DNA of 32,000 bases from Nitrosopumilus maritimus SCM1 (GCF_000018465.1 NC_010085.1:1230001-1262000); one strand, 5' to 3'; shown: positions 9,281 to 32,000, counted from the stretch's first letter. Notes: generated by a model from the letters alone, not told the origin. Translations and numbers: made by a program.

Positions 9281-10615
9281 TCAGTTCACGCTAATTGTAC
9301 CTTTCATCCAAGGATGCAAAGTACAGATGTAATCAAACTCTCCTGGATTGTCAAAGGAGTAGCTCCATGTATTTCCTGCCTGTATGAATCCAGAGTCAAA
9401 TGAATTTTCATTGTCAGTTACAGTATGCACTACAGAGTCATCATTTGTCCACGTTACGGTAGTACCAGAGTCAACTTGTATTGCAATAGGATCATATGAC
9501 TCTGTGATTTCAGGATTCCAGGAATCCTTTACAATTGATACCTTGTCAGCAGATACTTTTTCAGATGATATGGCAGCAGACTCTCCCAAGTTTTCATATG
9601 AGATTAGCTGTGGTTGCTCCAAAGTTCTGATTAGGTCTTCTTGCCACTCTACCATGGAATAGCTTCCCTTGTTGTTGCTTGGTCTTTGAACGTCTGATAA
9701 TGATGATGCATCCTCAAGCACTTCAATCATTGCCATGGAGCCACGTTCCTCTTGTATTCCATGTACATGGAAGAGGTACATTCCAGGCTGTGTCCATGTA
9801 GCTTCAATTATTGCAGTGTCACCGTTTCCTATCAGATGTGTCTGTGCATAGTATGGCTCATTCCACAGTATTCCTGACGGGTACACCTTCATGATTGTGC
9901 TGTGAACATGGAACGGTGACTGTAAAACTCCCCCAATACCTACAACATAAAATCTGGTCAATTCTCCTGAAACAACTCGTATTGGATTATCCATGTACTG
10001 ACCGGCATATCCATTAATTGGATAAAATTCAGTAAAATGCTCCAATGCGTTATTTGGATCAAATTCGCTTAAAGTAAAAAAGTATTCACGTGCAGGATCC
10101 ATTGGACGTATTGCAGGATCAATTATCATGGTGCCAAACATGCCCATTCTAACATGCTCGGACGTAGGAAATGCATGACAGTGATACATGAACAGTCCTG
10201 CTTCTTCTGCTACAAAGTGATACGTGTATTCCTCTCCAGGCATTATCATTGGAAAGACTCCGTCATTTGCAGAATCATGGGTTCCATGAAAATGAATGGT
10301 ATGTGCATATGGAGTATCATTTACAAATTTTACGGTAACGTCATCTCCCTCAGAGAATCTAAGCGTTGGTGCAGGAACCGTTCCATTGTACGTCCAAACC
10401 TTGGCCCTGACTCCAGGAGACACCTCAATTTCGGCATCTTGTGCAATCAAAGTATAAGACAGTGTTTGCGGATTTGGGTTTTTGAATTTTGGAAAAGTGT
10501 CAGACGAGTCTGCAACAGTTGTTTGAATCTCAGGGGACTGTAAGAGTATTGCAAATGCTATGCTAAATCCAATTATGATTCCTGCAACAATATAGATTGT
10601 ATTTGGCTTTACCAC
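9281..10615 (-). CDS. two-domain multicopper oxidase (NirK-related) with a fused C-terminal plastocyanin-like domain
   Basis: 444 aa, GTG start, N-terminal TM/signal anchor. Copper motifs HTIHFHG, MYHCHAFPTSEHVRMGMFG, FHVHS, LFHVHG. The C-terminal ~100 aa carry a type-1 Cu ligand set (VVHTV ... YICTLHPWMKG). Confidence 0.85.
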   Translation of the reverse strand: MVKPNTIYIVAGIIIGFSIAFAILLQSPEIQTTVADSSDTFPKFKNPNPQTLSYTLIAQDAEIEVSPGVRAKVWTYNGTVPAPTLRFSEGDDVTVKFVNDTPYAHTIHFHGTHDSANDGVFPMIMPGEEYTYHFVAEEAGLFMYHCHAFPTSEHVRMGMFGTMIIDPAIRPMDPAREYFFTLSEFDPNNALEHFTEFYPINGYAGQYMDNPIRVVSGELTRFYVVGIGGVLQSPFHVHSTIMKVYPSGILWNEPYYAQTHLIGNGDTAIIEATWTQPGMYLFHVHGIQEERGSMAMIEVLEDASSLSDVQRPSNNKGSYSMVEWQEDLIRTLEQPQLISYENLGESAAISSEKVSADKVSIVKDSWNPEITESYDPIAIQVDSGTTVTWTNDDSVVHTVTDNENSFDSGFIQAGNTWSYSFDNPGEFDYICTLHPWMKGTISVN

Positions 10616-10822: not shown

Positions 10823-10856
10823 GAGAAGTATACGCAACTGTAAATCATATACATTG

Positions 10857-10874
10857 GTAAGCTGCCAAGCTTAC
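10857..10874 (-). promoter_or_regulatory. perfect inverted repeat GTAAGCT-N4-AGCTTAC upstream of a TATA-like box (copy 2)
   Basis: Perfect 7-4-7 palindrome. Its centre is 43.5 nt upstream of ATG 10822, the same spacing as copy 1. Confidence 0.65.
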
Positions 10875-10960
10875 ATGTAGTGAGATGTTTTTACAACAGG
10901 GGTTTTGACAAATGGCAAATCCAATCTCATAGTTTGCCAATGTTGTGGCAAGAAATTATT

Positions 10961-11519: not shown

Positions 11520-11693
11520 GATTAGTTATGGAATAATTCTACAAAATCACAGCCAGAGCATATTTTTGCTTGAATCTTTCTCCAAGGCTGTTCTGCTTGT
11601 AGAGAGATGTTTGTCTCGCTTCTTTGAACAAGATTTGAACATTTTGGACATGTTTCCATGCTTTTGTATTCTTGTGCTCAGATATTATTAGCT

Positions 11694-11711
11694 GTAAGCT
11701 TGACAGCTTAC
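11694..11711 (+). promoter_or_regulatory. third copy of GTAAGCT-N4-AGCTTAC, opposite orientation, with no intact downstream gene
   Basis: Perfect 7-4-7 palindrome. The flank CCAATGTTTTTGATCAC (11711-11727) matches the minus-strand flank CCAAGGTATATGATCAC of copy 1. Only an 11-codon ORF follows. Confidence 0.5.
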
Positions 11712-11820
11712 CAATGTTTTTGATCACAATTGCAAAACGGAATTGACTTCTAGTTGTGCAATGACAAATTTCATTTGAAAAATTAGATCTGATTGAACAG
11801 ACTATACCTTGTTTTCATTT

Positions 11821-14510: not shown

Positions 14511-15893
14511 TTATTGCGTCAGGTATTCAATCATGGCATTGCAATGATCATCCATGAATGCATCAAGATTTCCAAGTTTGCCTTCCCATTGTTCAATGGT
14601 AAGTGTTGTACAAACATCCAATGCTTCAGAATCAACAGAATCTAGTCCCAGTTGTGCGTTATCCATGACGCTTTGTGTAAACTGTTTGTTTGTTTTGATG
14701 TGGTCTTTTGTTGCAAGAAGATTTGTGTGACCTGAAATCAAAACCTCAAAATCATAATTTTGTAATGTGTCATGTGTATCCAAGTAAAGATCAATATCAG
14801 GAGTAACTCCAAATGCACGATATGGGGACTCTGCAGGACGCAAAAGGTCAACTAGCATTGCAACCTTATAGTTAGGAAGTAGAATTAACAAATTACCTTT
14901 GGAATGAAAGTCACCAAGATTGTAAAACTCGATAGTTTTGTTGCCAATTTCAAGAGTGTTAAAGTCTCCTTCTAGGATTTGAGTTGGAATAGGCCTGTCA
15001 GGATTATTTTCAGATTTTAATTCATCTGCAGCATCTTTGTGTGATATGTATGTAATATCTTGGGAAAATATTTCTCCAGCTGCACCAGTGTGGTCTTGAT
15101 GATGATGCGAGTAGATCATATGAGTAATGGGTTCATCAGTTACCTCATCTATTGCACTAAGATACTTTTCGCCTATAGGTTGCGGTGCATCAACTGCAAC
15201 AACTCCTTGTCCGGTAGTTAGAAACATTGTCTGGTAGCCACTTCCAACTAGCCAGTATACACCATCAGCAATTTCTAGAACAGCATATCCCTTATCAGGA
15301 TCAGTTTGAATAGGAACCAGAGTGTGTTGTAACACAGTTTCATCTAATTCAAATTCCGTTGGAATTACATCAGAACATTCTCCTGCATGTTTGACTGCAA
15401 CGTGACTTGAGTCTATGGCACATTTGTTGCCATATGTCTTTCCGTCAATTCCACATACGGGGGCATATTCTAGTGTACATGCAATTACAGGATACTGTGT
15501 TTGCCATCCGCGTTGTTCAAGTTTATCTGCAGAATCAGGAGTGACACATGCAGGGGAGGCGTCACGAGACTTGAAGATCAGATTCAATCCTTCTGCACAT
15601 ATTACATCAGAAGCTGCAATTCCAGCATTTCCTTGCTGAGTGGGTCTAAGGTATGGTTGTTTGACACCATCCATCACACAAACCTTTCCAGCATAGACAC
15701 TTGGACCGCATCTGTCATTTAGTACACAGAGGTCCCCAAGAGATGCAAATCCTGGTGCACATACATTGTTGTATGGAATATGTTTTTCATGTATCCTGAC
15801 ATCATCTGCATACGAATACGACACAAGAGAAACCGCCAATACAGCAACCAAACTAAATAGTGAAAAGCTAAATACCAAAAAATTATTTTTCAT
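14511..15893 (-). CDS. secreted Cys-rich protein with a Kazal-type domain and a metallo-beta-lactamase fold domain
   Basis: I prefer ATG 15893 ([29 protein letters not shown] signal peptide). Kazal consensus [35 protein letters not shown] (15375-15479). MBL motif [12 protein letters not shown], with LISGHTN later. Confidence 0.8.
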
Positions 15894-16065
15894 GTATTTT
15901 TGGAATTTGTCATATCTTTTATTGTTTTTTGCCACAGCAGTATCTTGCATGAGATACGACAGAAGAGAATTAAGATATACGTTTGTCAACTGTAGAAATT
16001 ACCAGTAATTATTACATCGTCTGATGACAAGTTTGTGGCAGGAATTCTGCCCATCAATATTTCAT

Positions 16066-16743
16066 TTATCTATTTTTTCTAGACTTTAATGCAACTTCAA
16101 TTCCAAGCCCGATTACAACTATTGCAAGGACCACAATCACAGACAAGAAAACATCAACTGCCACATCTCCTGTCATTACAGCAGAATCTGCTCCAGAAGA
16201 TTCCATGTTTCCTGCAGGTACCCGTGCAGTCATTTCTGAATCCGCACTTCTTGACATGAACGGTGCAGATGATGGAGCAGGCTGGCTTGGACTAGAAACT
16301 GTTGATGTCTTTTGCATGAATTGTGATGTGAACCACGCAGCAACAGACACTCCGCCAAGTGTAGCCAGTCTGTGAATTCTGTTAAATGAGTTAAACAAAG
16401 ATTTGCTCTTTTTTGCGGGCTGGGACATTGCGTTTGGAAGTATTACAAGTGCGACTTTGTCAACAATGTAGAACTTCATGTCGTGTGATTTTGAATTTTT
16501 TCCCACGTTTGTTATTTTTACCACTCCAACTGACTGCATTTTTTTTAAATGGTGTATTACAAGCGGCAAGGACAGTTCTGTTTTTTGTGCAAGCTGATTT
16601 GCAGTAAAGGATTGATTAAACAATAATTGCAGTATTTTTCTGCTAGAATCAGATGATAGTATTTCTCCGATAACTTTTAGTCTGTCGTCTTCTGTTGATA
16701 TAATGTCAACCTTGTCAGAAATGTTTGGTTCATCGGAATCCAT
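16066..16743 (-). CDS. membrane-tethered ArsR-like wHTH regulator
   Basis: 225 aa. SRKILQLLFNQSFTANQLAQKTELSLPLVIHHLKKMQSVGVVKI wHTH, a Ser/Pro/Ala-rich linker, and a C-terminal TM (VFLSVIVVLAIVVIGLGIEVAL). Confidence 0.7.
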   Translation of the reverse strand: MDSDEPNISDKVDIISTEDDRLKVIGEILSSDSSRKILQLLFNQSFTANQLAQKTELSLPLVIHHLKKMQSVGVVKITNVGKNSKSHDMKFYIVDKVALVILPNAMSQPAKKSKSLFNSFNRIHRLATLGGVSVAAWFTSQFMQKTSTVSSPSQPAPSSAPFMSRSADSEMTARVPAGNMESSGADSAVMTGDVAVDVFLSVIVVLAIVVIGLGIEVALKSRKNR

Positions 16744-16834
16744 AAAAAAAGTGTGGGCACTAGTGTATTATTAAGACTTCTTGTTAAATCCAAATTTAAT
16801 CAAACGTTATAATCAAAATTCACCCACACACATC

Positions 16835-17611
16835 ATGAATAAAAAACAACTAACAGTTGTAATGCTTTCTGTATTGGTAGTTGCAGTGTCTGCAACTGCC
16901 GTATCATCAGAGGCAGATGCACAAAAGCCAACATCAATGCTATCTTTTGAAAAAACCATTGACGTTGTAGGAATAGGAATGATTTCCACAGATCCTGATC
17001 TTCTAACAATTCGATTGGGACTGGAGACCAAAGGCGATACTGCAAATGATGCACTGACTGCAAATTCTGCCCAGATGAGCAAAATACTACAGGCCTTAAA
17101 GAGCGTGGGCATTTCTGAATCAGAAATCAGCACGTCATCACTAAACATTCGTCCACAGTACGAATACGTTTACGATGAAACACGTGACAGAGACACAAGA
17201 ACGCTTGTAGGATACGAGGCATCCAACATCGTCACAGTAGAGACAAAGAGTCTTGACTTGGCAGCATCAATCATTGACGCATCAGTTAATGCAGGCGCAA
17301 ACAAAGTAGACTCTGTTTACTATTCACTGTCTACTGAAACCCAGATGAGTCTCAAAGACCAGCTTCTTGAGCAGGCCGTAATCAATGCACAGGAAAAGGC
17401 CAAAAATGTATTAGCTCCACTTGACCAGAAAATAATTGGTGTAAAGAGCATCTCTGTTTCTGAATTTGGAATTCCAACACCATATCCAGTATTTAGCGGC
17501 AGCAATATGGTCTTTGATGCAGCAATGAAGAGCAGTTCAACACAGCTGTTCTCATCAGAACAAGATGTCACAGCATCAGTTCACGTTGTCTTCCACATAG
17601 GAAGCAACTAA
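16835..17611 (+). CDS. SIMPL/DUF541-family secreted protein
   Basis: ATG 16835 gives MNKKQLTVVMLSVLVVAVSATAV (signal). STDPDLLTIRLGLETKGDTANDALTANSAQMSKILQALKSVGISESEISTSSLNIRPQYEY is the typical DUF541 pattern. Confidence 0.75.
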   Translation: MNKKQLTVVMLSVLVVAVSATAVSSEADAQKPTSMLSFEKTIDVVGIGMISTDPDLLTIRLGLETKGDTANDALTANSAQMSKILQALKSVGISESEISTSSLNIRPQYEYVYDETRDRDTRTLVGYEASNIVTVETKSLDLAASIIDASVNAGANKVDSVYYSLSTETQMSLKDQLLEQAVINAQEKAKNVLAPLDQKIIGVKSISVSEFGIPTPYPVFSGSNMVFDAAMKSSSTQLFSSEQDVTASVHVVFHIGSN

Positions 17612-21726: not shown

Positions 21727-22203
21727 GTGAAGCAAAATGACAGAATTTTGATTATTGCAGGACTAGTTTCAGGAGTGATGGGTCTTATAGTAATGGTGGG
21801 ATTTATCGGACAAGGGAACATAAGACATGTTGAGATATTTTGGACTGAAAAAGTAGAACAAACAGTAGTATTCCAAGAGATTGATGGAGAAACACAAATT
21901 CAGGCAATCAAAGGAGTCAAAGGAGACAACAACCCAACATTGATTTCAAGAACAGCTTTTGCATATGTCCTTACTGTAATTAATAATGGAACAACACATC
22001 ACAGACTATACATTGATGGATTTAATGTTCAGACAGACTTGTTAGAACCAGGACAACAAGATACAATTACATTTTATCCAGAAAATGAAGGAGAGTTTAC
22101 CTATTATGACAAGAGACAACATCTAGAGCCATTAGGTAAGATCAAAATTTTCTCCGTAGTTCCAAGTGACGAGTTTACTGGAGTTTGGAAAGATTTAGTT
22201 TAG
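21727..22203 (+). CDS. membrane-anchored cupredoxin-like protein lacking the Cys ligand
   Basis: 158 aa, GTG start, N-terminal TM. VLTVINNGTTHHRLYIDGFNVQTDLLEPGQQDTITFYPENEGEFTYYDKRQHLEPLGKIKI follows the cupredoxin strand pattern, but has D where the Cu-binding C is expected. Confidence 0.5.
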   Translation: MKQNDRILIIAGLVSGVMGLIVMVGFIGQGNIRHVEIFWTEKVEQTVVFQEIDGETQIQAIKGVKGDNNPTLISRTAFAYVLTVINNGTTHHRLYIDGFNVQTDLLEPGQQDTITFYPENEGEFTYYDKRQHLEPLGKIKIFSVVPSDEFTGVWKDLV

Positions 22204-25335: not shown

Positions 25336-25510
25336 GATTATCTATCATGAAAAAATTGTCTTAAAAAGTTATGGGTAAATAATTTGATGCGAAGGTTAGC
25401 TTTTTAGACTATAATTTAACATAGGAAATATTGACTTTTTCTTTAAATGACTGACTTTTAAGGCTACTAAAATAGACACTAATCCAAATCTAGAATTAAA
25501 GTTAGATTTT

Positions 25511-26839
25511 TCACGGACTATTCAAAGTCTGCATAAACTGTTGATTATTCATCATGTTGTTCATCATCTGAGGGTGCATCATCATGTTGTCCATCATTTG
25601 TTGACGTAATTCTGGATCATCCATCATGGTATTCATCATTGGACTCATCATGTTGCCCATCATTCCCTGCATATGCCAAGGATTGTTTAACATCATGTCA
25701 TGCATGTTCTGCATTACTTGAGGATCATTCATCATCTGACCCATCATGTTGTTCATCATTTGGGGGTTGTTCATAGTCCAATTACTATTCATCATAGTTC
25801 CCATATTCATCATGTTCATCATTTGTTTATTGTTCATCATGTCATACATCATCTGTGGATGATTCATCATGTCATACATCATTTGTTGTCTTAGTTCAGG
25901 ATCACTCATTGCAGTTCCCATAGCACTCATGTTATTCATATTTGACATCATACCGTGATTCATTCCCATCATGTTGCCCATCATCATTCCTTTGCCCATC
26001 ATGTTGTTACCCATCATAGAACCACCCATCATGTTGTTACCCATCATGCCTTGGTTCATTCCAGAACCCATCATGTTGCCATTCATCATGTTGTTTCCCA
26101 TCATGTTATTGTTCATCATCATATTACCCATCATGTTGCCCATCATCATTTTACCATTCATCATGTTCATCATCATTCCATTGTTCATCATGTCTTGCAT
26201 CATCTGTTGATTATTCATCATCATATCCATCATCTGTTGTCTTAGTTCAGGATCATTCATCATTCCCATCATTCCATGATTCATTGTACCTCCCATCATC
26301 ATGTCCATCATAGTGCTATTTCCTCGCATTGCTTGCATCATTGGTTGATGTTGTGCCATCATATCCATCATCTGTTGTCGTAGTTCTGGATTATCCATCA
26401 TTGTGTTCATCATCGGACTCATCATCTGAGGATTTTTCATCATTGTTGCTTTCATTTGATCAGTCATTGTCTGCAAATGCTGAGGATCATTTGCCATAGT
26501 ATCATACCAAAGTTTTCCAGTTTGCTGATTGCTTAACATGCTATTCATTACACGTTGCATTTGTTGTGGGTCGTTTGTCATCATGTTCAAATCCCAATTA
26601 CCCCATCCTCTATCTGCCAATCTCAGATAGCTGTCAGGATTAACACACGCAGGCATTCCCATGTTTTTCATCATGAGAACCTTACCGTCAGCACATACGA
26701 TTTGGTTTGGATTTGTTCCCATCATCATCTGCTGTTTTGGACTCATCATGGTTTGTGCCATAACTTGCTCAGAAAGTAACGATAGTGAAATTGTAGCAAT
26801 AGTGAAAATTAAGATTACAGAAAATAATGCCCTTTTCAT
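25511..26839 (-). CDS. secreted, extremely methionine-rich repeat protein (about 31 percent Met)
   Basis: 442-aa uninterrupted ORF. Signal peptide MKRALFSVILIFTIATISLSLLSEQVMAQ. Two-Cys N-terminal module. Then M/N/Q/G low complexity with repeated (D/N)PELRQQMM units. My hand count is ~138 Met. Confidence 0.8.
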   Translation of the reverse strand: MKRALFSVILIFTIATISLSLLSEQVMAQTMMSPKQQMMMGTNPNQIVCADGKVLMMKNMGMPACVNPDSYLRLADRGWGNWDLNMMTNDPQQMQRVMNSMLSNQQTGKLWYDTMANDPQHLQTMTDQMKATMMKNPQMMSPMMNTMMDNPELRQQMMDMMAQHQPMMQAMRGNSTMMDMMMGGTMNHGMMGMMNDPELRQQMMDMMMNNQQMMQDMMNNGMMMNMMNGKMMMGNMMGNMMMNNNMMGNNMMNGNMMGSGMNQGMMGNNMMGGSMMGNNMMGKGMMMGNMMGMNHGMMSNMNNMSAMGTAMSDPELRQQMMYDMMNHPQMMYDMMNNKQMMNMMNMGTMMNSNWTMNNPQMMNNMMGQMMNDPQVMQNMHDMMLNNPWHMQGMMGNMMSPMMNTMMDDPELRQQMMDNMMMHPQMMNNMMNNQQFMQTLNSP

Positions 26840-26917
26840 ACTTTATTGATAGTGTTTTTGTTAAATTTAAAGTATATACCATATTTCACAGATGATTCTC
26901 AGATGATGTAATGAGAA

Positions 26918-27538
26918 TTATGATGACTCGGATTGTTTTAGATCATTTCTAGCGTCCTTAATGATTGAGAATGATGATTGTAAAAAGAGACTTGCAATTA
27001 TTCCAGCTACTATAAGATCAGGGTAGGATGTTCCTGTCAAAAATACAAAACCTGCACCAACTATTACCAAAATATTGCCAAGTGCGTCATTGCGACTAAA
27101 GAGCCATACTGCACGTACATTTGCGTCACCTTTTCGATGTGGAAGCAATATGATAACTGCAATTACATTTATCAAAAGTGCACCAAAGCCAAAGACTCCC
27201 ATCATTCCAGCTTCTGGAACATGCAAAACTTGTGTGCGATATATTGTATATCCAAGTACTGCAATTCCCATTGCACCAAGGAATATTCCTTGGAGTAAAG
27301 CTGAGCGAGCACGTAATCTAAGACCCCATCCTATTGCAAGTAATCCTAAAAATGTGATTGACCCGTCACCTAGAAAATCAAGTGCGTCAGCTTTGAGTGC
27401 TTGAGAATCTGCCAAGAATCCCCCAATCATTTCGGCAACCCCGTAACCTACATTGATTAAAACGACAACCCATAATGCGCGTTTGTATGCAGGTGTGATA
27501 TGAGCAAGATCTTTTGGTAAATCATCATCGTCTGGCAT
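26918..27538 (-). CDS. cation diffusion facilitator (CDF) transporter, membrane domain only
   Basis: 206 aa. CDF signature SQALKADALDFLGD (TM2) and NVRAVWLFSRNDALGN (TM5). Ends right after TM6, with no cytoplasmic C-terminal domain. Confidence 0.8.
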   Translation of the reverse strand: MPDDDDLPKDLAHITPAYKRALWVVVLINVGYGVAEMIGGFLADSQALKADALDFLGDGSITFLGLLAIGWGLRLRARSALLQGIFLGAMGIAVLGYTIYRTQVLHVPEAGMMGVFGFGALLINVIAVIILLPHRKGDANVRAVWLFSRNDALGNILVIVGAGFVFLTGTSYPDLIVAGIIASLFLQSSFSIIKDARNDLKQSESS

Positions 27539-27575
27539 TAACTTTACCTCTCAAATTCAATTAGAGTTAAATAAT

Positions 27576-27601
27576 AACATATCATTAATTAATGATATGT
27601 T
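27576..27601. promoter_or_regulatory. perfect 12-2-12 palindrome AACATATCATTA-AT-TAATGATATGTT (ArsR/SmtB-type operator)
   Basis: A 26-bp perfect palindrome between the divergent CDF and ArsR genes. It covers the ArsR ATG (27597) and abuts the shared AT-rich TATA-like region 27566-27576. Confidence 0.75.
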
Positions 27602-27926
27602 AAAACAAGAGACAGACAAACTTGAATTAAAAGCAAAACTGTTTCGAGGTTTTGGAGACATGACAAGACTATCCATACTAGAATCCATCATAGATGAAGA
27701 AAAGACGGTCACAGATATTTCTCAAAAAGTAAAGCAAAGCCAATCAAATGTGTCTAATCACCTATCATGTTTACTAGAATGTGGGCTTGTGAAGATTAGA
27801 AAAGATGGCAAAAACAGGTTTTACAGTATTGGAGATAAGCGAGTTGTCAAGCTTCTCAAGCAGGGAGACGACATATTGTCTGATATTGCAGATGGAATCT
27901 ATTCCTGTGTGAATTACAAAAAATAA
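27597..27926 (+). CDS. ArsR/SmtB-family metalloregulator with a CmtR-like Cys arrangement
   Basis: 109 aa. FGDMTRLSILESI ... SQSNVSNHLSCLLECGLVK closely matches M. tuberculosis CmtR SNVSNHLSCLRGCGLVV as I recall it. Cys58 and Cys62 lie in the recognition helix, and Cys104 lies near the C-terminus. Confidence 0.85.
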   Translation: MLKQETDKLELKAKLFRGFGDMTRLSILESIIDEEKTVTDISQKVKQSQSNVSNHLSCLLECGLVKIRKDGKNRFYSIGDKRVVKLLKQGDDILSDIADGIYSCVNYKK

Positions 27927-31371: not shown

Positions 31372-32000
31372 TTATTTTTTACGTCTGAGTTTACTGGTTC
31401 TAGAGATTTTCTTGTCCATTTTCTGCATTTTTAACCTCATTTCCTCAATTTTTGCCTCCAAATCTTCATTTGAACTAGCACCCTTGGAAATTTCCTTAAA
31501 CTTTGAAAAGATATTCAATCTTCCAGAGGCTTTGATGTACTCTTTTCGCAATGTAGCAGTAAACAGATGTGCTTGTTTTTCATACGAGTCTTTTGTCTTG
31601 TGTCCAATGAACTCTTCAGCCAAATCATATCGTACATCAGAGTCTATCAGTACAGATTTCAAAAGATCACGTGTTTCATGAGGAGTTATTCGGTATTTCT
31701 TTCTTGACCCATTTCCTACTGATTTTGAGTTTAAAATTTCATCTAACCCTGAATTTTTTCGCATTCTCTCAAAACTTTTGGTTATCCAAGTTTCTTTGAT
31801 AGGTTTTTGGAAATTATTTAAGAAAAGTGCACTCTTGTTACTCATTTCTTGCCCTGTGATTTTTTTTCTGTAAGGAAGATAATCAATTATTGCAGAAACT
31901 GCGTCTCTATCTAAGAAACCAAAATGAGATACATTAGTCTTTACTCTAGTTAGTTCTATTAGAATTGGGCATTTCTTCAAATCCCATTTTTTATAATCTT
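31372..32000 (-). CDS. tyrosine recombinase/integrase, C-terminal catalytic part (N-terminus lies beyond the window)
   Basis: ITPHETRDLL (HxxR) and FIGHKTKDSYEKQ (GH ... Y). The reading frame stays open upstream of the track start (...DYKKWD-LKKCP...) to position 32000. Confidence 0.75.
   Translation of the reverse strand, partial: DYKKWDLKKCPILIELTRVKTNVSHFGFLDRDAVSAIIDYLPYRKKITGQEMSNKSALFLNNFQKPIKETWITKSFERMRKNSGLDEILNSKSVGNGSRKKYRITPHETRDLLKSVLIDSDVRYDLAEEFIGHKTKDSYEKQAHLFTATLRKEYIKASGRLNIFSKFKEISKGASSNEDLEAKIEEMRLKMQKMDKKISRTSKLRRKK

Follow-up and report, generated by a model that had tools for sequence, protein, structure and literature searches.

A conserved, 31% methionine protein beside an ArsR-CDF metal module in Nitrosopumilus maritimus SCM1, a candidate extracytoplasmic soft-metal buffer

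SilE and PcoE, the periplasmic silver- and copper-binding proteins of the sil and pco operons, have been proposed to act as metal sponges; they are exported, Met-rich and partly disordered, contain helix-forming repeats, and are encoded near a sensor and an exporter. Motifs of methionine alone, which are selective for Cu(I)/Ag(I) and withstand oxidising compartments, include, besides those of SilE, the Mets motifs of Ctr1 and the sites of CusF and CopC/PcoC. Where a compartment is oxidising, binding of Cu(I)/Ag(I) is typified by sites built only from thioethers (PMC11840665). Two further proteins invite comparison: (i) CopI of Rubrivivax gelatinosus, a periplasmic cupredoxin-like copper-tolerance protein with His/Met-rich regions, which is described as a modular copper buffer with functional disordered regions (PMC13308877); and (ii) MrpX of Azospira suillum, a periplasmic protein with a signal peptide and 20% Met, which serves as a hypochlorite sink (PMC4436054). 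Here, we describe a far more Met-rich protein, encoded in a 32,000-nucleotide stretch of N. maritimus SCM1 (NC_010085.1:1230001-1262000, hereafter the window) by a gene on the minus strand at 25511..26839 (442 aa, 138 Met), next to a cation diffusion facilitator (CDF) exporter and an ArsR/SmtB metalloregulator. Comparison among related genomes indicates that the link of this gene to metal homeostasis is well founded, and its product may be a thioether-based extracytoplasmic buffer for soft metals, with Cu(I) favoured, a function to which we give about an even chance.

The SCM1 protein appears to share each of the listed traits of SilE and PcoE, but searches of Pfam (including matches with E-values up to 10) and NCBIfam found no sequence relation to either. 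SilE is a protein of about 140 aa with paired His/Met motifs (HxxM/MxxH) and a far lower Met density, whereas the SCM1 protein has few His, and the transporter that accompanies it is a CDF rather than a P-type ATPase or a resistance-nodulation-division (RND) pump. CopI is best compared with relatives of the SCM1 protein that join a type-1 copper domain to His/Met-rich segments (P0001, P0005-P0012 and the protein of locus L009); the SCM1 protein itself lacks a cupredoxin domain, no homology to CopI was detected outside that domain, and its Met-rich part runs to hundreds of residues and is mostly helical, in contrast to a short loop in CopI. MrpX resembles it in having a signal peptide, a very high Met content and no other obvious function. 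However, MrpX is small and 44% of its residues are charged, as opposed to 442 aa, 31% Met and about 10% charged residues here, and MrpX is defined by its co-transcription with yedYZ (msrPQ), for a periplasmic methionine sulfoxide reductase, under an oxidant-sensing sigma factor, while the SCM1 gene is partnered by a metal sensor and a metal pump. The initial annotation, made from the DNA sequence, knew of no characterised equivalent; these proteins are functional analogues, though none is homologous. Exported Met-rich buffers in metal modules are thus already known, and what is new is an extreme variant from an uncharacterised archaeal family that has no solved structural relative.

Exact counting gives Met as 138 of the 442 residues (31.2%), the figure that had been reached by hand, compared to a mean of 2.35% over the 34 other open reading frames (ORFs) of the window, which is an excess of about 13-fold (binomial P ~1e-110). 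The initial annotation was also right that Asn (64, 14.5%), Gln (40, 9.0%), Gly (34, 7.7%), Asp (22, 5.0%) and Pro (20, 4.5%) dominate the remainder, that His is scarce (8 residues), and that Cys is confined to the N-terminal module, where it occurs solely at positions 49 and 65. Asp, Glu, Lys and Arg together make up about 10% of the protein, and its sparse Lys and Arg leave tryptic fragments of 4 to 74 residues, several of them longer than 50 and all heavily Met-laden. The repeat unit MMSPMMNTMMD(N/D)PELRQQMMD occurs twice, as had been stated (aa 139 and 397), and the central MMG/MMN tract, given earlier as about 100 aa, lies at approximately aa 206-304; the shorter unit (D/N)PELRQQMM is present four times (aa 150, 196, 313 and 408) and not five. 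Met-Met spacings of i+1, i+4, i+5 and i+10 are enriched and i+2 is depleted, resulting in 18 occurrences of MMxxMM and 14 of MMxxxMM. The DNA had been described as some 1.2 kb of near-continuous CATCAT and consequently prone to slippage. ATGATG makes up only 26% of the bases of the gene, exact repeats reach at most 24 nt and perfect tandems at most 18 nt, the repeats mix Gly with Asn codons, and Tandem Repeats Finder reports degenerate arrays alone (58-90% matches). A 40-aa unit, for instance, is represented by four degenerate 120-nt copies (25505-25624, 25790-25909, 26141-26260 and 26279-26398). Both the near-continuity and the proneness to slippage were therefore overstated, although the latter keeps some support from three in-frame indels in the MMG tract among five orthologues. 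The repetition is kept up at the level of the protein. Antisense His-rich ORFs (e.g., 25955-26245, plus strand) mirror the ATG repeats, have neither a signal peptide nor a domain, are absent from the protein collection described below, and were set aside.

The gene is real and under strong purifying constraint. Its neighbours exactly match proteins of N. maritimus SCM1, which identifies the source, namely ABX13263, ABX13264 and ABX13265 on one side and ABX13267 (the CDF) and ABX13268 (the ArsR) on the other; since ABX13265 and ABX13267 leave one accession slot between them, the ORF is almost certainly annotated, probably as Nmar_1370 (ABX13266, A9A2M7). The exact protein sequence is absent from a collection of 15 billion proteins in which all of its neighbours are present, and none of six shorter versions with alternative starts was found there. 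Extreme low-complexity proteins may be systematically dropped from large collections of this kind. An identical ORF occurs in 7 other assembled contigs (Logan, from other sequencing runs), and when the CDF was used as an anchor, with a single genome for each species, four other genomes yielded syntenic orthologues (442, 438, 426 and 455 aa; 30-31% Met; 83-94% identical to the SCM1 protein). Against these four, the ratio of nonsynonymous to synonymous substitution rates (dN/dS) of the SCM1 gene is 0.06-0.10 at dS 0.34-0.95, and the segment aa 206-312, which includes the MMG/MMN tract, is the most constrained, with a pooled pN/pS of 0.064, the lowest in the gene. Length differences among orthologues are in frame and confined to the MMG tract, with indels of 5 and 15-16 aa. 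The identical contig ORFs, the orthologues and the low dN/dS together mean that the gene is neither an artefact nor a decaying repeat; the conservation and the length polymorphism that the initial annotation had proposed to look for are both present, and the assembly or frame artefact that it had entertained is ruled out. As a separate observation, contigs L001-L004, from separate read sets, all end at about window position 27155, inside the CDF gene and 316 nt upstream of the Met-rich gene, which suggests a repeat (possibly a second CDF copy) or strain heterogeneity; no copy of the break-point sequence occurs elsewhere in the window.

The layout seen in the initial annotation, a signal peptide followed by a two-Cys module and repeats, holds, and the module can now be named. 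A Sec-type signal peptide, read by eye, occupies aa 1-28 (26756..26839, minus strand; MKR, a hydrophobic core and a VMA/Q junction), AlphaFold2 places a helix at residues 2-26, and the hydrophobic N-terminus and the A-Q junction are kept across the family alignment. From these features, the protein is probably exported via Sec and soluble between the membrane and the S-layer. The WING-49 domain (NCBIfam NF058652, E 6.5e-20) follows at aa 34-80 (26600..26740, minus strand), which align with positions 1-48 of the 49 in the model and score 71 bits against a cut-off of 22. Both hallmarks of WING-49, two conserved Cys and an (L)xDRG(W/Y)G end motif, are present; residues Q37, C49, C65, L74, D76 and R77 are invariant among 41 aligned sequences, and Cys49 and Cys65 probably form a disulfide.

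AlphaFold2, run on a 41-sequence alignment, gives the whole protein a mean predicted local distance difference test score (pLDDT) of 71 and models WING-49 as a small alpha/beta unit (pLDDT ~88). The rest of the protein is predicted to consist of two confident all-helical regions that flank a disordered MMG/MMN loop. Region I (aa 84-231; 26147..26590, minus strand) contains short helices started by N/D-P and two of the DPELRQQMM units; its pLDDT is 79-95 at aa 84-180 and 55-69 at aa 181-230, and it matches the family core up to about aa 180. The (MMG/MMN)n tract (aa 232-304; 25928..26146, minus strand) has a pLDDT below 50 at residues 231-248 and 250-304. Region II (aa 305-442; 25514..25927, minus strand) contains the two further DPELRQQMM units, reaches a pLDDT of 71-94 at aa 351-440, and aligns with the family core at aa 355-440. 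A canonical relative, P0053, models better (pLDDT 81.5; predicted template modelling score, pTM, 0.75), with the WING-49 alpha/beta unit and about 17 short helices. Foldseek found no structural match in the PDB, and outside WING-49 no Pfam family matches the protein above threshold; the TetR_C and BID-domain matches fall below their cut-offs and were put down to helical or compositional bias. The C-terminus carries neither an anchor nor a sorting signal, the chain ending in NSP, and no remnant of a plastocyanin was found downstream of the stop codon.

The protein does not stand alone. A search found 213 homologues, all of those with a named source being from Nitrosopumilaceae/Thaumarchaeota, and its N-terminal module is the already curated WING-49. 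Judging from these sequences, it belongs, as the extreme case, to an uncharacterised family that is specific to ammonia-oxidising archaea: Met content ranges from 6 to 26% among the best 120 of the 213 homologues, with the window protein as the extreme. About 24 clusters at 50% clustering match at E <= 1e-30, many weaker homologues match WING-49 alone or a plastocyanin part alone, and a profile search recovers the same WING-49/Met-rich family. The family core spans about 290-320 aa and consists of a signal peptide, WING-49, a helical region, a linker and a second helical region; both helical regions end in DPELRQQMI, and the Gly/Met linker bears C(P/A/S)WC. The motif (M)MxDPELRQQM(I/M) recurs throughout, and many conserved columns of the 41-sequence alignment are Met. 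The window protein fits this layout over its full length, including the conserved columns M157, M161, M167, M379, M383, H389 and M415. Family members, for example NKOR_00905 (Candidatus N. koreensis) and BD31_I1829 (Candidatus N. salaria), are true homologues (E 1e-30 to 1e-100), which share with it the signal peptide, WING-49, both helical regions, and DPELRQQM near the end of each region. It differs from canonical members in that the Cys-bearing linker is replaced by an insertion of about 170 aa, HWH is lost, and Met in the shared columns is doubled, from 15% in canonical members to 29%. The C(P/A/S)WC and HWH motifs are absent from the window protein (in which KLWYD replaces HWH), from P0001-P0003 and from the syntenic orthologues. 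Among the 136 Met of the mature protein, 33 are ancestral, 22 replaced hydrophobic residues, 25 replaced polar, charged or His residues, and 56 lie in lineage-specific insertions, so that, compared to canonical relatives, Met was gained from every residue class.

Family members are annotated as hypothetical or, in some cases, as plastocyanin. Many have a C-terminal plastocyanin with a C-x2-H-x2-M site (P0001, P0005-P0012), a domain that the window protein lacks. One relative (P0002) adds two C-terminal rhodanese domains, and another adds a CuA-like cupredoxin and a haem domain. A second class has an N-terminal membrane anchor, MMNDPQxMQQMM repeats, MMG runs and a Cupredoxin_1 domain (P0081). 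WING-49 is also present in P0010, P0053, P0076, P0031 and P0002, and it is a mobile module, N- or C-terminal in exported archaeal proteins (P0200, P0244, P0272, P0274 and P0309) that include plastocyanins, double DsbA-like thioredoxins and a glucose/sorbosone dehydrogenase; a docking or anchoring role is possible. P0002 and P0003, the closest relatives away from the CDF locus, are encoded in contexts (L005 and L086) that have in common a BNR/sortilin-like neighbour, and DsbA-like thioredoxins, a DUF302 protein and a three-domain multicopper oxidase are found among their neighbours. Because these two genes lie outside the CDF locus, the CDF link is not universal in the family. A further protein, P0055 (Nitrosopumilus sp. 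S6, 'Vgb family protein', 328 aa), contains in its last ~100 residues a stretch, equal to 15% of the query, that shares 84% identity with the window protein's C-terminus and is joined to a beta-propeller-type N-terminal part; this could reflect genuine shuffling of domains or else a frameshift or chimeric assembly at the repeat.

Genomic context provides the strongest functional evidence for the Met-rich protein. Linkage was surveyed in 15 Nitrosopumilaceae loci anchored on the CDF and in 65 bacterial loci with a homologous CDF. In 12 of the 15 archaeal loci, a Met-rich exported or anchored protein is encoded within about 500 bp of the CDF/ArsR unit, and the remaining flanks of the 15 loci contain one further Met-rich ORF only; the earlier suggestion of a link to metal homeostasis genes has in this way been extended to several gene orders. 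The linkage spans loci of Nitrosopumilus, Nitrosarchaeum and Nitrosotenuis. The partners represent four architectures in at least four gene orders, being located downstream of the CDF, upstream of the CDF, or divergent from the ArsR: (i) hyper-Met WING proteins (SCM1, L006-L008, L010 and L016); (ii) a WING protein with Met/His and a plastocyanin (L009); (iii) anchored Met-rich proteins with or without a cupredoxin (L011, L014, L018 and L022); and (iv) a Met-rich YtkA-like protein, a weak Pfam match (L012/L013). Such repeated recruitment of different Met-rich proteins to one transporter speaks for Met-richness as such being the requirement of the module. A CmtR-like ArsR with a conserved palindromic operator is found beside the module in five genomes, and in genomes other than SCM1 this operator falls in a promoter region shared with Met-rich genes. 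The gene for P0010 (WING, Met/His, plastocyanin), for instance, diverges from an orthologous ArsR across a 63-bp gap that contains the operator, with no CDF.

The 65 bacterial CDF loci contain no Met-rich ORF longer than 179 aa; a few small ORFs of 9-15% Met occur, mostly far from the CDF, with two of 97 aa just downstream of it. With alphaproteobacterial CDFs (Roseomonas, Phenylobacterium and Aurantimonas) the archaeal CDF shares 64-70% identity. In the sole bacterial copy that was inspected, on a plasmid of Jiella pelagia (NZ_CP114030.1, 4971-6265; L087), the CDF homologue is extended at its N-terminus by a GMDCPSC heavy-metal domain and lies divergent from an ArsR that likewise shows the C-x3-C plus C-terminal Cys pattern, within a metal-resistance island that also contains cueR, lspA and lgt. 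The ArsR-CDF cassette looks to have passed between the bacterial and archaeal domains.

In SCM1, the order is ArsR, the divergent CDF and then, after 78 nt, the Met-rich gene. Pfam and NCBIfam confirm the metal sensor and CDF exporter that the initial annotation had placed beside it: the CDF (ABX13267; 26918..27538, minus strand) is a short exporter of 206 aa (Pfam Cation_efflux, 1.3e-16), and the ArsR/SmtB metalloregulator (ABX13268; 27597..27926, plus strand) has 109 aa (NF033788, 2.2e-22). Of the equivalogs, CmtR fits the ArsR best, with a score of 57.9 bits where the cut-off is 150, and the ArsR is therefore not a CmtR orthologue by the NCBI criterion. Its span 12-89 aligns with residues 11-88 of Mycobacterium tuberculosis CmtR (2jsc), so that Cys58 and Cys62 fall on CmtR positions 57 and 61 (by spans of equal length, not by a residue-level alignment), and like CmtR it has a third Cys in the tail (Cys104). 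All three are kept in four ArsR orthologues. On these grounds the three-Cys site, with two Cys in the DNA-recognition-proximal helix and one at the C-terminus, appears CmtR-like, and we take the roles of the CmtR Cys as ligands as the basis for reading it as the sensing site. A perfect 28-bp palindrome (TAACATATCATTAA/TTAATGATATGTTA) at 27575..27602 overlaps the start codon of the ArsR; the window holds no second one, 0 being expected by chance, and its core is kept at the ArsR start in L006, L010, L016 and L089/L090. It is presumed to be the ArsR operator in the divergent ArsR/CDF promoter region.

A TATA-like box (TTTAAATTT) lies at 26863..26871 on the minus strand, centred about 28 nt upstream of the Met-rich ATG, and is kept in SCM1, L006-L008 and L009, the downstream gene in L009 encoding the plastocyanin-fused relative. 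By analogy with archaeal promoter architecture, it suggests a promoter of the gene's own and a leaderless or short-leader mRNA. An imperfect inverted repeat with 10-nt arms and a 10-nt spacer (26892..26921) spans the CDF stop codon and is largely kept in L006 and L007. No T-run terminator is present between the CDF and the Met-rich gene, so read-through is possible, and control of the SCM1 Met-rich gene by the ArsR through such read-through is plausible.

Taken together, we infer metal binding, the identity of the metal, export and SCM1 regulation as follows. The Met-rich protein would be the extracytoplasmic arm of a metal-stress module. On binding metal, the CmtR-like three-Cys repressor would leave its palindromic operator, and the CDF would then export the metal from the cytoplasm. 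Outside, the Met-sulfur clusters of the exported protein (MMxxMM and MMxxxMM) would bind soft metal ions, most likely Cu(I) or Ag(I), and so provide a high-capacity, oxidation-tolerant buffer that could shield exposed copper enzymes and the membrane from free Cu(I)-type ions. The SCM1 lineage has exchanged the Cys/His linker (CxWC, HWH) for the insertion of about 170 aa with extra DPELRQQMM units and the (MMG/MMN)n loop, and hydrophobic, polar and charged positions elsewhere have turned to Met, giving a nearly thioether-only surface. In relatives, the fused type-1 copper domain could receive or oxidise the bound copper.

The preference for Cu(I) derives from thioether chemistry and from the cupredoxin and plastocyanin fusions. 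Copper is further supported by P0003, the closest full-length relative, whose gene adjoins a multicopper oxidase, and by the occurrence of WING-49 in other exported plastocyanins. The disordered MMG/MMN loop resembles the disordered His/Met regions of known copper buffers (PMC13308877), and Reyes et al. (PMC7785015) consider it probable that copper delivery in N. maritimus relies on a chaperone yet to be identified. Several points weigh against a Cu(I) buffer of this kind. In SCM1, a second ArsR operator was sought upstream of the Met-rich gene and none was found, the sole one lying upstream of the CDF, and the gene has its own conserved TATA-like box. The sensor and the exporter, as read from their sequences, point to divalent thiophilic metals and not to Cu(I): CmtR senses Cd/Pb, the usual substrates of CDFs are divalent cations, and the GMDCPSC domain of the bacterial CDF homologue is presumably ZntA-like, of the Zn/Cd/Pb type. 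Canonical family members of about 290 aa are not found in metal contexts, and the rhodanese-fused P0002, encoded among DsbA-like genes, hints at sulfur or redox chemistry. Many of the Met in the confidently modelled helices may simply form a hydrophobic core and not act as ligands. A literature search found no mention of the gene, its neighbours or the family, and no experimental or expression datum on the gene, an SCM1 copper-stress transcriptome/proteome study being outside its reach. As the copper and the Cd/Pb/Zn evidence disagree, the protein is best described as a soft-metal buffer with Cu(I) favoured, and a Cd/Pb-type ligand is treated as a separate rival. The Cu(I) sponge of the initial annotation is thus borne out as to Met-richness, linkage to a metal module and copper-domain fusions, and left in doubt as to the metal, which may also be Cd, Pb or Zn. 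A stronger version is tentative and rather doubtful: the protein would found a new class of thioether-only, high-capacity extracytoplasmic Cu(I) sponges that is central to, and so far overlooked in, the copper economy of marine ammonia-oxidising archaea, is controlled by a Cu(I)-sensing CmtR-like repressor, and shares its ancestry with plastocyanin-fused forms, which would pass on or oxidise the copper once it is bound. If so, at three or four Met per ion, the 138 Met could hold tens of ions per molecule.

Should the same module serve another metal, the protein would handle the divalent thiophilic ion exported by the CDF, e.g., Cd(II), Pb(II) or Zn(II), and block its re-entry or the mis-metallation of exposed copper enzymes, copper not being the ligand. 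The CmtR Cys pattern and best equivalog of the ArsR, the likeness of the CDF to bacterial CDFs, with a GMDCPSC domain and a similar ArsR in Jiella, and the tight CDF-Met-rich linkage across genera would all fit, and the 22 Asp and many Asn/Gln could supply harder ligands. However, it is established coordination chemistry that thioethers bind Zn(II) poorly and Cd(II) and Pb(II) only weakly, the SCM1 lineage has lost the His and Cys suited to such ions, the fusion partners are copper domains rather than Zn or Cd domains, and the bacterial cassettes lack a comparable large Met-rich partner, so we regard this as unlikely. A sacrificial oxidant sink, in which exposed Met scavenge H2O2, HOCl or reactive nitrogen species outside the membrane of an organism that has no catalase, has a precedent in the hypochlorite sink MrpX (PMC4436054), and marine ammonia oxidisers mostly have no catalase and are sensitive to H2O2 (PMC6593220). 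Met at 31% in a partly disordered exported protein would react fast, and the rhodanese fusion and DsbA-like flanking genes of P0002 agree with redox chemistry. Yet the conserved partners are a metal sensor and a metal pump, the charged fraction is far below that of MrpX, and without extracytoplasmic repair 138 Met per molecule would make a costly single-use sink. The nearby methionine sulfoxide reductase (Msr) genes that the initial annotation had proposed to seek are lacking, as no Msr or molybdoenzyme gene occurs in the Pfam-scanned part of the window (14.5-32 kb) or among the family-annotated genes of related loci, which weakens this idea to an improbable one.

Two explanations dispense with metal or oxidant as the target. 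Met-lined surfaces bind unfolded or hydrophobic clients in the SRP54 M-domain, Sgt2 and STI1 DP, and the protein could be a chaperone of this kind, or a maturation or docking factor for exported cupredoxins. Its N/D-P-capped short-helix repeats and NPxxMxxMM motifs do resemble STI1/DP and the Sgt2 C-domain, which are also its only non-cupredoxin sequence matches in the PDB (E 0.22 and 0.74), the core family folds confidently in the model of P0053, WING-49, being shared with a dehydrogenase, DsbA-like proteins and exported plastocyanins, may be a docking site common to them all, and canonical members lie outside metal contexts. These STI1/Sgt2 matches are not significant, though, Pfam STI1-type models do not match, and Foldseek offers no structural match, such that membership in the STI1/DP or Sgt2 type of Met-rich helical hands was rejected; the pairing with CDF and ArsR, the rise to 31% Met and the Gly-rich disordered tract would moreover go unexplained, and we consider a chaperone quite unlikely. 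A structural, surface-matrix or storage protein, i.e., a filler of the pseudo-periplasm or a reserve of methionine and sulfur, would account for the low-complexity composition, the disordered central tract and the lack of a catalytic motif. It is very improbable in view of the strong purifying selection on the exact sequence, low-complexity tract included, the conservation of individual Met and His positions across the family, the conserved linkage to a regulator and a transporter, and the lack of a C-terminal anchor or sorting signal.

Elsewhere in the window, an ORF at 9281-10615 (minus strand, 444 aa) encodes two plastocyanin-like domains that are 41-45% identical to the fused C-terminal domain of relatives, and one at 21727-22203 (plus strand, 158 aa), 3.3 kb from the Met-rich gene, encodes a membrane-anchored cupredoxin-like protein. 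A second ArsR-type helix-turn-helix protein (16066-16743, minus strand, 225 aa) adjoins a SIMPL/DUF541 protein (16781-17611, plus strand) and a Kazal plus metallo-beta-lactamase protein (14511-15989, minus strand). Near the window end, an ORF of the phage integrase family (31372-31980, minus strand, 202 aa; E 5.7e-9) could be a sign that the ArsR-CDF-Met-rich module belongs to a mobile island; no compositional island signature is obvious around the Met-rich gene, where there is no GC anomaly, and the window contains no tRNA. A 43-nt inverted repeat (10844-10886 and 11682-11724, 81% complementary) flanks 795 nt and may belong to a small mobile or structured element.

Ammonia-oxidising archaea, whose respiratory chain is built on copper, rank with the ocean's most abundant cells. 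This gene may bear on the ways in which copper and other soft metals are buffered, acquired or detoxified outside their membrane, and its presence in a model strain makes it directly testable. To our knowledge, no other natural protein has such a composition; at 31%, its Met content exceeds that of Met-rich seed storage proteins, and that of MrpX at 20%. Given the gap in the protein collection and the large, Met-laden tryptic fragments, proteins of this type are easily missed in homology searches and shotgun proteomics. If Cu(I) binding proves true, the protein would offer a natural scaffold for Met-only metal coordination and a handle on copper limitation and toxicity in marine nitrification.

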